Notes: generated from the sequence alone by a model not told the origin. A stretch of DNA of 64,000 nt from Nitrosopumilus sp. (GCA_965219345.1 OZ244732.1:1696001-1760000); one strand, 5' to 3'. Positions 20,266 through 35,861 are shown, numbered from the stretch's first letter. Program-made: numbers and translations.

Positions 20266-20570
20266 AGACTTTATGCGTAATCGCACTTGCAAATTTTTTT
20301 TTTTTTTGTGGCGCAGGCCGTGCCAAGCCTGTCTGTACCCGTTGCCCACAGGCCATCCTCAAGTTCCAGCCGCTCGCGGAGAGAGCTGACTGCCTTGCTG
20401 TGCTTGCTGACTTCCCTGTCCTTCTGCCTGATCGTCTTGGCATTCTCTTTGAGCTCCCTTTGCAGCCTTCGTATGGTCTGTTCGGGGGACTCCATTGCAT
20501 GTGGCGGCGATCAAGGCGGATCTAAATCTTTCGAAAAATTTGCAAGTGGCGATTACGCATAAAGTCTAAT
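20263..20570. mobile_element. ~308-bp non-autonomous IS derivative (MITE) with ~36-bp terminal inverted repeats
   Basis: ATTAGACTTTATGCGTAATCGC(C)ACTTGCAAATTTTT at both ends in inverted orientation; GC-rich interior with 74-aa coiled-coil ORF 20271-20495(-). Confidence 0.88.
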
Positions 20571-20738
20571 ATTGTAATCTGCTTTTGAATTGAAAAGCGG
20601 GTCAAGATAGATTAGGTCAACTGATTCATCACTAATTTGTTCCCTTAGAATCTTTAGATTGTCACCAAAGAAAAGTAAATTTTTTGCGAACCTCCCCCCC
20701 CCCCCCGCGTTCCCGATTGGGTTAGATGTGGAGATCAT
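20553..20738 (-). pseudogene. N-terminal fragment of a beta-class DNA methyltransferase, truncated by the MITE
   Basis: LFFGDNLKIL...SVDLIYLDPLFNS (DPPF-like motif IV); in-frame G13 tract near the start. Confidence 0.85.
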
Positions 20739-20739
20739 C

Positions 20740-20910
20740 TTAGGCAGATCCTATAATTTCTATTTTTTTACCTTTTATTACAAATTCAATGTGATCAGGA
20801 TTATGTAACACTTCTAAAACTTTTGGTGGGATTCTACAAAGTTTACTAAACTTGCTAGTAGTACTTACGGCCACTCTGAAATTTGTCTCATCTTTTTTCC
20901 AACGTGTCAT
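20740..20910 (-). CDS. Small AbrB/MazE-like DNA-binding protein
   Basis: MTRWKKDETNFRVAV...CRIPPKVLEVLHNPDHIEFVIKGKKIEI; paralog at 34266-34439. Confidence 0.65.
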   Translation of the reverse strand: MTRWKKDETNFRVAVSTTSKFSKLCRIPPKVLEVLHNPDHIEFVIKGKKIEIIGSA

Positions 20911-20936
20911 AATGTATTCCAAAACCTTGACTATAT

Positions 20937-20979
20937 TAAGAGTACGTTTACTAGTAATTATTAAATAAGAGTACTCTTA
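20937..20979. promoter_or_regulatory. Two palindromic operator-like boxes flanking a TATA-like element in a divergent promoter
   Basis: TAAGAGTACGTTTA (20937) and perfect palindrome TAAGAGTACTCTTA (20966), with TTATTAAATA in between. Confidence 0.55.
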
Positions 20980-21001
20980 TCTAAATAACAATGAAGCGAG
21001 T

Positions 21002-21076
21002 AAAAATGAGGGCAATAATGAGCCAACTCTCGTCTGATCAAATGATGATCACGGCATGATCTGAGCCCTCATTTTT
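21002..21076 (+). ncRNA. Box C/D guide sRNA
   Basis: 12-bp terminal stem AAAAATGAGGGC/GCCCTCATTTTT; C ATAATGA (21015, 1 mismatch), 12-nt guide, D' CTGA (21034), C' ATGATGA (21042), 12-nt guide, D CTGA (21061). Confidence 0.78.
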
Positions 21077-21118
21077 TGATTCTCATTATTCTATTTTAAT
21101 TTTCAAGAGGTCTTACGC

Positions 21119-33479: not shown

Positions 33480-34269
33480 GCACCTGCTGCACAGAACTGA
33501 CTCTTTTTCTAGCTATCTTGGCATACTGGGATGACACATCGCATCCGATAAATTCTCTGCCGTGTATAGCAGCCATCTTGCATGTGGTTCCGGAACCACA
33601 CATGGGATCAAACACAAAATCTCCTTTATTACTCCATGACAAAATATGATCCTCTGCAAGTTTTTCTGGAAAAATGGCTGGATGCTCAAATGCATACCTG
33701 TCGTTTGTCGTTCCACTAACCCTACAGCATACTCCCAGATGTTGGTCTTTGTCTTGTATTCATTGAGCTTGGCCTTGACCTTGCGGTTTACTGCATCTGG
33801 CCCCTTGTTGTATACCACGCCTTCCACGCCATTCCTAACAGTTTTTTCCGTTAACGGGTTGAATGTCACCGGCTTTCCCTTTGCCAGAATAAACATGAAC
33901 TCGTAGCAGTTTGTGTATGCGTTGCTCCGCATGAACGGCGTGTTCTTCTTGCGGTAGATCATCACGTCGTGTATGGTGAACCCTATCTGTTTGAAATAAA
34001 GTGCCTGATCAAAGCTGGTGAGGCTACGACCGCCGTTAATCCTGTCGCCTACAACCCATATTACGATCCCCCCGAGTCACTTCATAGAGTGACTTGGCGG
34101 TATTCTCAAAATCAAAAACATAGCCTTCATAGTTTCTGAGATTGTCATACGGTGGAGATGTTACAGTAAGGTCAACAGAACCGGGCTTGATTCTGTCTCG
34201 CATGAACTTTACGCAGTCGGCAGTGTATATTTTGTTTTTTTCTGCATACTTAGTTTTTATGCGATTCAT
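33469..34269 (-). pseudogene. Beta-class N4/N6 DNA methyltransferase, two frameshifts
   Basis: VDLTVTSPPY, HPAIFPE, DPMCGSGTT across frames; shifts at G6 run (34068-34073) and ~33716. Confidence 0.88.
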
Positions 34270-34439
34270 TCCTTCTCGCCTGCGGTTACGAGTATCTTGT
34301 TCTTGGTTATAGTAAATTTCAGAGCAGAGGGCATCCCAAGTTTTTCTACTACTGGTTTTGGGATCTTGCAGCCATGCGTTCCGGCGGTGGGATTCAGCGA
34401 AACCACAAATTCTGTTGCGTCCTGTTTCCATTTTGGCAT
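34266..34439 (-). CDS. Small AbrB/MazE-like protein (57 aa, not in ORF track)
   Basis: MPKWKQDATEFVVSL...CKIPKPVVEKLGMPSALKFTITKNKILV; ATGA overlap with MTase start; paralog of 20740-20910. Confidence 0.75.
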   Translation of the reverse strand: MPKWKQDATEFVVSLNPTAGTHGCKIPKPVVEKLGMPSALKFTITKNKILVTAGEKE

Positions 34440-34473
34440 TAGTGGGGATAGTAAACAGCCGTTAAATAAGTAT

Positions 34474-34525
34474 TACTGTATCAGTCTGATAATAGAAAGC
34501 ATTATATTATCAGACTGATATAGTA
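34474..34525. promoter_or_regulatory. 21-bp inverted repeat (1 mismatch) overlapping BRE/TATA of the tRNA-like gene
   Basis: TACTGTATCAGTCTGATAATA ... TATTATCAGACTGATATAGTA around GAAAGCATTATA. Confidence 0.65.
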
Positions 34526-34532
34526 TATGTAT

Positions 34533-34618
34533 GGCAGGATTGCTTAGCAAGGTTAAAGCGACAGATTCAGAATCTGTGTCTCTCGCCGAGATCGTGGGTT
34601 CAAGTCCCACTCCTGCCG
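34533..34618 (+). tRNA. tRNA-like gene, anticodon CAG (Leu codon CUG) with G73 and long variable arm
   Basis: GGCAGGA/TCCTGCC, GCTT/AAGC, ACAGA-TTCAGAA-TCTGT, TCTC/GAGA variable stem, GTGGG-TTCAAGT-CCCAC, G73. Confidence 0.88.
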
Positions 34619-34667
34619 CACATGTCATTTCTTTTCATTCTATATTAATTTTCGAGGGGAATTACGC

Positions 34668-35789
34668 ATGAATCCCAGACAACAGCGTGCAAAGACCATG
34701 ATGGAAACACAAGGCTACTGCTCCCAAATCAACCACGATTCCTTCAAGGTACGTTCCCAGACAAACCCAGAGAATCACTATATCGTATCAAAAACAGACA
34801 ACGGCCTTGTCTGTGAGTGTCCAGACCACGAGACACGAAACGCAGACTGCAAGCACATCAAGATTGTGCTGGATGTTATCAGGCGTAATGGCTGTTATCG
34901 TAACAACACTTTCCGCATCATGGAACGTGCCAAGCTGAGACTCTGCAAGTATTGCGATTCAGGCAACATCACCAAAAAGGGAACCAGAAAGACCAAGAAA
35001 GGTGATGTCCAGATATTCAAGTGCAAGGACTGCACGAGAAGATTTACAGCAAACTTTGGATTCAAGAAGATACGGTTTGATGAGAATGTGATTACCGGAG
35101 CCATGCAAATGTATTATTCGGGAATGTCTACCCGTGACATCGCAAACCACTACGAAATGATGGGAATTGACGTGTCCGATGTTGCAGTTTTCAAGTGGAT
35201 TGACAAGTATTCCAAAATGACAGCAAAGTACCTTAATGGAATCGTACCCAGAGTCGGCGGCTGGTTCCGTGCAGATGAGGTATGGGTGAAGATCAACGGG
35301 AAGCAATGCTATCTTTTTGCAAACATGGACGATGATACGAGATATTGGTTGGCTTCCGACCTAGCAGACAACAAGTTCCAGCACAATGCCAACAATCTAT
35401 TGAGAATGACAAAACAGCAGTCCGGCAAGTCACCACGAAACTTCATCACTGACGGGCTTCCGGCCTATGCCAAATCATCAAAGAGGGTGTTTGGCAAGAA
35501 AACCAACCACGTAAAGCACATCCACCTGGCAGGCAAAAGAGACAAGGACAACAATAACAAAATGGAGAGGTTGAACGGTGAGATTAGAGACCGTGAGAAG
35601 GTGTTTCGTGGTCTAAAGAAGATGGACACCGGAATACTTGACGGAATGCGAGTCTATTACAACTACACGAAAAAACACGGTGCATTGAAGGGTCAGACTC
35701 CGGCAGAGGCTTCAATGATTGAGGTTGATGGCATAAACAAATGGAAAACCATCATTCAGAATGCAAGTCTGAGTAAGGACTCTGAATAG
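34668..35789 (+). CDS. IS6-like DDE transposase with SWIM and Zn-ribbon domains (intact)
   Basis: CECPD...CKH, CKYC/CKDC, RADEVW, FITDGL, NNKMERLNGE; IS6-like end ..TACAGTACC at 35803-35811. Confidence 0.92.
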   Translation: MNPRQQRAKTMMETQGYCSQINHDSFKVRSQTNPENHYIVSKTDNGLVCECPDHETRNADCKHIKIVLDVIRRNGCYRNNTFRIMERAKLRLCKYCDSGNITKKGTRKTKKGDVQIFKCKDCTRRFTANFGFKKIRFDENVITGAMQMYYSGMSTRDIANHYEMMGIDVSDVAVFKWIDKYSKMTAKYLNGIVPRVGGWFRADEVWVKINGKQCYLFANMDDDTRYWLASDLADNKFQHNANNLLRMTKQQSGKSPRNFITDGLPAYAKSSKRVFGKKTNHVKHIHLAGKRDKDNNNKMERLNGEIRDREKVFRGLKKMDTGILDGMRVYYNYTKKHGALKGQTPAEASMIEVDGINKWKTIIQNASLSKDSE

Positions 35790-35861
35790 GCATAGTGTAA
35801 TATACAGTACCATACAGTATCATATTTTTCTTTTGCAATGGTTTTTTAACAGGTTGATGCA

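Follow-up and report, generated by a model that had tools for sequence, protein, structure and literature searches.

A probable family of IS6-type cargo transposons in Nitrosopumilaceae with an optional slot for tRNA or C/D-box RNA genes

We analyzed a 64,000-nucleotide stretch of the Nitrosopumilus sp. genome (GCA_965219345.1 OZ244732.1:1696001-1760000; here, the window), in which two look-alike modules each combine a DNA methylase gene, a small gene, operator-like repeats, a structured RNA gene, and a transposase gene. A reading of the sequence alone had placed this pair within 20553-35811, and every item that it listed is present there; the two modules hold up, but the units are larger than it gave, spanning 33074-36317 (module 2) and about 20575-22510 (module 1). 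We conclude, with a probability of roughly 80% that includes the roles inferred for the regulator and RNA genes, that both modules belong to one family of IS6-type cargo transposons of Nitrosopumilaceae. The module 2 copy is an intact, recent insertion, and module 1 is a decayed copy of the same element family.

Module 2 forms part of a complete IS6-family element of 3244 bp (window 33074-36317), which holds at least four further genes and a tRNA within its inverted repeats besides the transposase. Its ends were found by pairing each GGTTCTG with a downstream CAGAACC in the genome. The terminal repeats begin GGTTCTG, read GGTTCTGC..., and match at 29 of 30 positions; a repeat finder returned inverted arms at 33059-33120 and 36271-36332, in agreement with the paired ends, and the sequence ...ACAGAACC is common to the 3′ regions of many paralogous transposases of the same genome. 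Identical 8-mers bracket the element, and in two relatives of the same genus the left flank (32705-33074) directly joins the right flank (36318-37620), the flank alignments sharing 9 bp at a single TCATATGA. Given this empty site and the 8-bp duplication, the methylase, small gene, tRNA, transposase, and two open reading frames (ORFs) were inserted as one piece. One end lies outside the methylase and the other past the transposase, and neither separates the RNA gene from the transposase; the element evidently moves as a whole unit with GG-initiated inverted repeats and an 8-bp target duplication. The proposal of a cargo-carrying IS6-like transposon is thus supported by inverted repeats, target duplication, and empty site alike. 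The features of the intact element are as follows.

33066..33073, unstranded: left copy of the 8-bp target site duplication, TCATATCA; identical 8-mers bracket the element
33074..33103, plus strand: left terminal inverted repeat (GGTTCTGCTAACTTGTCGAGACC...), identical to the right end at 29/30 positions
33155..33370, minus strand: ORF of 71 amino acids (aa), no assigned function, last in the cargo arm
33400..33478, unstranded: nested 79-bp repeat with inverted ends (inverted repeat 33399-33418/33461-33480)
33469..34269, minus strand: N6/N4-type DNA methyltransferase with SPPY motif and poly-C tract 34062-34067; PF01555 match in the C-terminal piece
34266..34439, minus strand: small protein of 57 aa, unnamed family, putative AbrB/MazE-like dimeric regulator, coupled to the methylase
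34474..34525, unstranded: operator-like inverted repeat overlapping the TATA-like TTATATTA (34502-34509)
34533..34618, plus strand: element-borne tRNA, anticodon CAG, long variable arm, discriminator G (ARAGORN; Rfam, 57.5 bits)
34637..34667, plus strand: conserved leader (TTCTATATTAATTTTCGAGGGG...) with Shine-Dalgarno-like GAGG(G/T)G
34668..35789, plus strand: intact transposase of 373 aa, IS6/IS240-type DDE, with N-terminal zinc-finger (SWIM-like) extension
35862..36257, plus strand: ORF of 131 aa, no assigned function, between transposase and right end
36288..36317, minus strand: right terminal inverted repeat, from repeat pairing and the repeat finder
36318..36325, unstranded: right copy of the target site duplication, TCATATCA, the same 8-mer as in the left flank

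Members of the IS6 family have GG-tipped repeats with a cTGTt motif and generate an 8-bp duplication (PMC7986276). The elements described here have a PF13610-type DDE transposase (1.6e-14 and 54.6 bits for module 2, against a cut-off of 27), GG-start repeats with the cTGTt motif, and the 8-bp duplication, but at 3244 bp the module 2 element falls outside the single-gene format of about 0.7-1.5 kb. Because of this length and the extra genes and tRNA inside its repeats, we regard it as a cargo-carrying (tIS) form and not a classical insertion sequence (IS). The 71-aa and 131-aa ORFs have no significant match in Pfam or PADLOC. The unit at 33400-33478 has a 98.7% copy at genome 1635920-1635998, adjoining a leader-like remnant and a repeat end, and may be a small nested (miniature) mobile insert.

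The C-terminal piece of the module 2 methylase matches PF01555 (2.4e-13), and the gene runs through three frame segments. Contigs of two runs show 7 more C in its poly-C tract at 34062; by frame arithmetic, 7 extra C at 34067 would leave the methylase frame unrestored. Poly-C/G runs of at least 9 number 33 in the genome, versus about 0.6 expected, and the runs in the window (20694-20706, 21690-21700, 29754-29763, and 34062-34067) lie inside two methylase genes, one DUF1156-type gene, and a broken transposase. Variation of the poly-C tract may reflect either phase variation or an error in homopolymer assembly.

Module 1 (about 20575-22510) repeats the order of parts seen in module 2, and its features are listed below.

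20553..20738, minus strand: methylase remnant, N-terminal 61 aa, with DPLFNSK motif and poly-C tract 20694-20706
20740..20922, minus strand: small protein of 60 aa, same family as that at 34266-34439
20937..20984, unstranded: operator-like repeats, TAAGAGTAC... twice plus the palindrome AAGAGTACTCTT
21006..21072, plus strand: C/D-box small RNA (sRNA) candidate, from boxes, spacers, and stem
21088..21118, plus strand: conserved leader, matching that of module 2
21119..22266, plus strand: transposase pseudogene in three ORFs, one break at poly-C tract 21690-21700
22375..22455, plus strand: tRNA, anticodon CCU, long variable arm, discriminator G (ARAGORN; Rfam, 62.3 bits)
22492..22510, minus strand: degenerate right end, ACGATAAGCTAACAGAATC, from manual comparison

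At ~20575, the end of a different repeat family truncates the methylase and left end of module 1 (three further copies of 20500-20580, at 96-97%, occur elsewhere in the genome), and a search for the left end did not find it. Near the right end there is no exact GGTTCTG/CAGAACC; ACGATAAGCTAACAGAATC agrees with the right end of an intact sister element (1007879-1010720) at 15 of 19 positions. The CCU tRNA lies between the transposase and this end, and a tRNA with this anticodon and arm type occupies the corresponding position in another element of the genome. In the sRNA candidate, the 5′ half consists of stem ATGAGGGC, C box AUAAUGA, a 12-nucleotide (nt) guide, and D′ box CUGA, and the 3′ half of C′ box AUGAUGA, a 12-nt guide, D box CUGA, and stem GCCCUCAU, with a terminal stem of 8-12 bp.

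The parallels that the sequence-only reading drew between the modules stand up in nearly every detail. The small proteins are homologous (35% identity), and both match the family profile at E values of about 1e-27 to 1e-28. Coupling to the methylase is tight, with the module 2 methylase ATG (34269-34267) overlapping the small-gene stop (34268-34266) and a one-base gap in module 1. The palindromes that it placed in the divergent promoters are inverted repeats at 34474-34497/34502-34525 (24-nt arms, 92% complementary) and 20937-20950/20966-20979. The structured RNA that it saw in the same slot of both is, in module 2, a full tRNA (34533-34618) beyond the tRNA-like structure it had named and, in module 1, a segment with C/D boxes and a stem (21006-21072). 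A recount of the 34-nt stretch taken as pre-ATG (21088-21121 versus 34637-34670) again gives 29/34 identical positions, and the stretch includes the ATG. The transposases are paralogous as claimed, at 34-39% identity, but that of module 1 is broken into three ORFs.

The element recurs within this genome (1.9 Mb, 36% G+C), where tblastn with this transposase yields 44 segments. Other intact elements here have repeats that match at 30/30 positions, and one, the sister element at 1007879-1010720, also has an exact 8-bp duplication, GTTCTGAT; others lie at 1033406-1036785, 745195-749172, and 1218898-1223066; the terminal repeats of most sister elements read GGTTCTGT.... Deletion forms of 983 bp with half of the transposase gene (C1 401802-402784 and 1450318-1451300) and miniature forms of 120-640 bp (C1 45801-45979, 905045-905680, 1029414-1029537, and 1169890-1170009) have the same terminal repeats. 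For the wider family, we scanned one genome per species for related transposase loci. The resulting 78 loci are nearly all from Nitrosopumilaceae or other Nitrososphaerota, the outliers being one in Methanoperedens and one weak match in Thermoplasmatota. Among the 45 loci inspected for ends, which are those that keep most of the transposase gene, a repeat pair bounds 22 and an exact 8-bp duplication accompanies 15; the repeat-bounded elements of other genomes are 1855 to 6893 bp long. Judged by these loci, the transposon family is common in Nitrosopumilaceae. The proposed neighborhood also recurs at homologous transposases elsewhere. Of 49 copies that retain the start of the transposase, 39 of them foreign and 10 from this genome, 16 have the small-protein family and about 21 have an RNA gene, and 17 of 27 repeat-bounded elements have a methylase.

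Of the 99 candidate ORFs in the 22 foreign elements, 14 that were short or overlapping were set aside, and the other 85 were compared with Pfam to identify cargo, together with 18 element ORFs and the two window small proteins from this genome. Twelve of the 22 foreign elements and 5/5 of this genome encode a DNA methylase domain, with partners that include BglII-like and CfrBI-like nucleases, HNH, endonuclease VII, Mrr, GmrSD_N-HNH, ResIII, and NurA; certain elements have small ORFs as their sole cargo. PADLOC gave 0 matches for the 6 proteins submitted. One arm of the element, by its gene content, is evidently cargo, which in most cases is a DNA methylase or a complete restriction-modification system. 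Transcription of this cargo usually appears to start with a small gene oriented divergently to the transposase across a short region of element-specific repeats.

Relative to the transposase, cargo, small gene, and RNA slot have been reshuffled. In a maximum-likelihood tree built from 32 full-length transposases (early-stop rows, 14 of 46, were omitted), the state of the RNA slot changes 10 times, versus a shuffled mean of 11.6, and the near-identical transposase pairs L015/L017, L033/L034, and L024/L027 differ in regulator or RNA. Since cargo, regulator, and RNA are all discordant with the transposase tree, the slots are exchangeable, as had been proposed from the two modules.

The RNA slot lies between the operator and the transposase and holds a tRNA or a C/D-box sRNA, followed by the conserved leader. 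Six tRNAs in the slot are confirmed by ARAGORN, and one more is tRNA-like by eye; a C/D-like RNA lies directly upstream of the leader in 15 of the 49 copies. Both window tRNAs are called by ARAGORN and score 57.5 and 62.3 bits in Rfam, for which the cut-off is 29 bits. All six copies with a confirmed tRNA have the 57-aa small-protein family. The C/D candidates have C and D boxes near their ends, internal D′/C′ boxes, 12-nt spacers, and a closing stem. In an alignment of the four best copies, the boxes and the terminal stem do not vary, unlike the two 12-nt guides. Terminal stems of 5-12 bp, unrelated to one another in sequence as in stems maintained by compensatory change, occur in 9 of the 12 C/D candidates scored (three further candidates were unscored). 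A covariance model (R1) detects only three element copies in the genome, at E <= 3.6e-16, and among the 78 loci it finds L025 and L042 clearly and longer C/D variants at E 0.4-0.55; because the model is narrow, the foreign C/D count rests on manual reading of boxes and stems. Eight guides compared with 16S and 23S rRNA reach at best 10/12 Watson-Crick pairs (3/8 guides), near chance. A guide with no rRNA match lowers the C/D call but does not exclude it, since orphan C/D guides are described in archaea (PMC6009581). We considered that the C/D region might descend from a duplication of the transposase 5′ end and rejected the idea: in local alignments, only C748k among the C/D-bearing copies beat shuffles (p about 0.01), and over all 45 copies tRNA-bearing L039 also did so (p about 0.04).

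The spacing and leader of the transposase gene follow the state of this slot. From small-gene start to transposase ATG, RNA-less copies measure 66-118 bp and six RNA-bearing copies measure 196-241 bp; the values of 115 and 118 bp for another two RNA-bearing copies result from ORFs that begin too early. A GAGG(T/G)G motif, complementary to the 16S rRNA 3′ end (GGATCACCTCCTT), occurs in the last 25 nt of 18/21 RNA-bearing versus 1/24 RNA-less copies. RNA-less copies have a TATA-like box about 30 nt before the transposase ATG, which suggests a leaderless transposase mRNA. In module 2 the same promoter geometry aims at the tRNA 5′ end, with the TATA-like TTATATTA 24 nt upstream of it, and a 48-nt leader separates the tRNA from the transposase. 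These arrangements are consistent with a model in which the TATA-like box of RNA-less copies yields a leaderless transposase mRNA, whereas in RNA-bearing copies the regulated promoter would drive the tRNA or C/D sRNA and the transposase would form a second, Shine-Dalgarno-led unit on the same transcript. Under such co-transcription, no primary transcription start would be expected within the leader (TTCTATATTAATTTT), and the stable RNA would be processed off and could act as an attenuator or insulator of transposase expression.

The small protein and the repeats beside it suggest how such a promoter might be regulated. In the source genome, 4/4 copies of the small-protein family diverge from this transposase. 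A word-based protein search returned only 3 relatives, and an exhaustive profile search was used instead; a 7-member profile matched 228 cluster representatives at E <= 0.001, of which 66 reached E <= 1e-10. No Pfam family covers these proteins, and both window proteins lack a Pfam match. Besides the 16 copies with this family, the slot opposite the transposase holds a PF04014-type protein in 4 of the 49, and further sister elements have a zinc-ribbon, "YLYY" family, or winged-helix small protein there. Each element has its own set of repeats in the spacer. An AlphaFold monomer model (predicted local distance difference test score [pLDDT], 77.6) has a beta-alpha-beta-beta layout. The predicted homodimer scores 0.48 versus 0.00 for the best control, with runs agreeing in at least 92% of contacts and pLDDT of at least 68; in the calibration of the tool, this mark was reached by 20/30 proteins solved as pairs and 1/23 solved as single chains. 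In this prediction, strand 10-14 pairs with strand 39-44 of the other chain, and the strands of the two chains interlace. The small protein could thus be a dimeric AbrB/MazE-like DNA binder that sits on the repeats and controls both divergent promoters, a part that would correspond to that of controller (C) proteins in bacterial restriction-modification systems. From the element-specific repeats and the predicted dimer, we infer that it may regulate its own expression.

Several observations weigh against parts of this reading. The methylase of the module 2 copy is frameshifted twice in this assembly, and for this reason its cargo may be dead. Ten of the 27 repeat-bounded elements have no recognizable methylase. 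An RNA gene is absent from more than half of the copies, which makes the RNA slot optional. T-runs 3′ of the RNAs, if they are terminators, could oppose co-transcription, and so could an A/T-rich leader that is itself a promoter. The signals for the label "AbrB-like," which the earlier reading attached to the small proteins, are weak. Only 7 of 79 family members match PrlF/MazE, at E 0.005 or worse; nothing that Foldseek returns for the small-protein model reaches E <= 0.001; structural Z scores peak at 2.5, the range of 2.0-2.5 covering MraZ, the DZBB fold, and AbrB; and hhalign against the PF04014-type proteins of sister elements gives a probability of 10%. A sequence search of solved structures with the small protein returned nothing below E 0.6. 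The signals that exist are concordant: the nonsignificant Foldseek rows include MazE and AbrB, the core IPKP..E.LG motif is in register with the PF04014-type proteins in hhalign, and one Atlas cluster (score 0.85) has PF04014 on 10% of its members. Homology of the two small proteins stands, and the fold evidence for an AbrB/MazE-like nature is weak and all in one direction.

The tRNAs themselves raise an alternative in which the RNA genes are trans-acting cargo and not cis leader modules: the tRNAs would be charged, probably with serine, and read non-serine codons or replace nuclease-attacked tRNAs, and the C/D sRNAs would guide 2′-O-methylation of cellular or foreign RNA. Each of the 18 tRNAs located no more than about 300 nt from such a transposase or transposase remnant measures 83-91 nt and has a long variable arm, and nine of the 18 belong to this genome; among the 78 foreign loci, the long arm occurs in 9/9 tRNAs within 300 nt versus 2/11 further away, one of the two distant ones being a true tRNA-Ser. 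The discriminator is G in 16 of the 18, including both window tRNAs. The anticodons are diverse (CAG, CCU, GAU, UAU, UCU, GAA, UAA, ACG, AUC, and UUC), most of the tRNAs carrying one for an amino acid other than Ser or Leu, and the element tRNAs inspected have, with no exception, a canonical 7-nt anticodon loop with U33 and a purine at 37. The host tRNA-Ile(GAU) and tRNA-Arg(UCU) are ordinary and 77 nt long, and the host tRNA-Leu(CAG) has A73. By the rules of tRNA identity, a long variable arm together with G73 specifies serine, and the element tRNAs would have serine identity on this basis. The tRNA at genome 1038939 (anticodon UAU) has the acceptor stem and D arm of the host tRNA-Ser(UGA), and further long-arm or irregular tRNA-like genes lie beside transposase remnants or repeat ends at C1 334078, 903933, 969887, 1038939, 72288, 787949, and 1438222. 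A trans role also suits the variation of guides within invariant sRNA boxes and stems, and bacterial allo-tRNAs provide a precedent (PMC5389517). Against it stand the serine identity derived from general rules, guides that pair with rRNA at about chance level, the cost to a host of missense tRNAs, and the tight link with a Shine-Dalgarno leader, which suits a cis role; where the allo-tRNA authors treat the UAU class, they doubt that it has a role in translation (PMC5389517). We therefore consider trans-acting cargo an unlikely explanation.

Rather unlikely, too, is the more specific proposal that the transposon spreads serine-type tRNAs with Leu, Arg, Ile, Phe, Asp, and Glu anticodons and orphan-guide C/D sRNAs as its payload. 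If it were true, the element would alter how its host reads or modifies RNA: it might cause low-level missense decoding (e.g., of CUG or AGG as Ser), supply substitutes for tRNAs that anticodon nucleases have cut, or direct methylation to selected RNAs, and the element would be an archaeal, transposon-borne counterpart of bacterial allo-tRNAs.

An addiction function for the small protein seems improbable. By this account it would form a toxin-antitoxin-like pair with its neighbor, as a MazE/AbrB-type antitoxin and not a transcriptional controller, which would explain its translational coupling to the next gene, the weak PrlF/MazE matches of the unnamed family, and the PF04014 (MazE_antitoxin) matches of four elements (31.6, 27.2, and 24.9 bits, at or above the cut-off of 24.7, and 23.3 below it). 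Yet the downstream partner is mostly a DNA methylase, no known toxin family appears in Pfam searches of the element ORFs, and PADLOC gives no match. Unrelated small DNA binders (zinc ribbon, "YLYY," and winged helix) hold the same position in sister elements, and a regulator slot therefore fits better than a specific antitoxin. A nonmobile arrangement, with an IS beside host tRNA/sRNA genes in a restriction-modification island or a tRNA serving as an integrase attachment site, might be suggested by the variable, IS-rich, higher-G+C stretch around both modules and by tRNA genes being the commonest integration targets in Thaumarchaeota (PMC6563490), but it is already contradicted and keeps almost no probability: repeats, duplication, and empty site enclose methylase, small gene, tRNA, and transposase together, the layout recurs with target duplications in many genomes, the element has no integrase, and its tRNAs are not host genes (the CAG tRNA of module 2 has no full-length copy in 30/30 relatives and the CCU tRNA of module 1 occurs in 0/30, versus 30/30 for the host tRNA-Leu(CAG) with A73).

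As an IS6-type cargo transposon, the element combines features of several known systems. It resembles IS6 members (IS26, IS257, and the archaeal ISH14/ISC774 group) in DDE type, GG-start CTGT repeats, and 8-bp duplication, but classical members are 0.7-1.5 kb with a single gene, whereas the elements here are 1.9-6.9 kb, enclose a regulator along with restriction-modification and RNA genes between their repeats, and have a 373-aa transposase with a zinc-finger N terminus. Where an IS6 review deals with passenger genes, the sole member it names is ISDsp3, whose gene is hypothetical (PMC7986276), and a survey of the thaumarchaeal mobilome describes IS-like transposons as having one or two genes (PMC6563490). 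Furuta, Abe, and Kobayashi (2010) described bacterial restriction-modification units that lack a transposase but have inverted repeats and 8-bp duplications; as its screen is laid out, units with linked mobility genes were dropped and no archaeal case was left (PMC2853133). The unit here is like these in its restriction-modification genes inside repeats, 8-bp duplication, and matching empty site, but it is autonomous, archaeal, and part of a multicopy family.

Likeness to the C proteins and C-boxes of type II systems lies in a small DNA-binding gene heading the operon and in system-specific promoter repeats, as in one element where a BglII-like nuclease and methylase are paired with a small DNA-binding-type gene at the operon head. 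C proteins are helix-turn-helix proteins, whereas the slot here holds putative AbrB/MazE-like, zinc-ribbon, or other small folds, and the operator region, unlike C-boxes, also faces a transposase or RNA gene. The allo-tRNAs of Mukai et al. (2017) have a long variable arm, Ser identity, and diverse anticodons and occur near toxin-antitoxin loci or transposons (PMC5389517). The element tRNAs are alike in arm, likely Ser identity, many non-Ser anticodons (UAU being frequent), and mobile or toxin-antitoxin association. Allo-tRNAs, as described there, are bacterial with 8/4 or 9/3 acceptor/T-stem, whereas the tRNAs here are archaeal and in fixed slots of an IS6-type element, and that of module 2 has, on manual reading, the canonical 7/5. 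Lui et al. (2018) reported a C/D-box-sRNA-resembling element in Pyrobaculum calidifontis that is like a miniature inverted-repeat transposable element (PMC6009581). Both cases have C/D-sRNA-like genes spreading with an archaeal mobile element, but the Pyrobaculum element is, in that account, a short nonautonomous repeat, whereas here the sRNA is an optional module of an autonomous transposon, in the gap between operator and transposase.

A literature search, supplements aside, found no description of this transposon family or of a tie between the RNA slot and the transposase. Its gene load would be almost unprecedented for the IS6 family, whose members are otherwise treated as single-gene insertion sequences, and its presence in abundant ammonia-oxidizing archaea would offer a direct autonomous route for defense genes within and between genomes. 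The optional tRNA/C/D sRNA slot would tie stable RNA genes to transposase expression, and it exposes odd long-arm tRNAs that are open to charging and decoding tests.

Other features of the window lie outside the two modules. At 22551-23035, a 77-aa ORF and an overlapping 84-aa ORF matching ParE_toxin (PF05016, 6.3e-10) are probably a RelB/ParE-type toxin-antitoxin locus. On the minus strand at 27438-30069, a large gene in three ORFs with an N-terminal DUF1156 match (3.7e-22), weak DNA-methylase matches, and a poly-C break looks like a decayed defense methylase. A 360-aa integrase-core (rve) transposase of another IS family lies at 31557-32639, within sequence of 42-50% G+C; in two runs, its contig depth is about tenfold that of neighboring DNA, which indicates that this element is high-copy in those two samples. 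A second stretch of raised G+C (42-50%) lies at window 43000-47000, the window being otherwise at about 33%.

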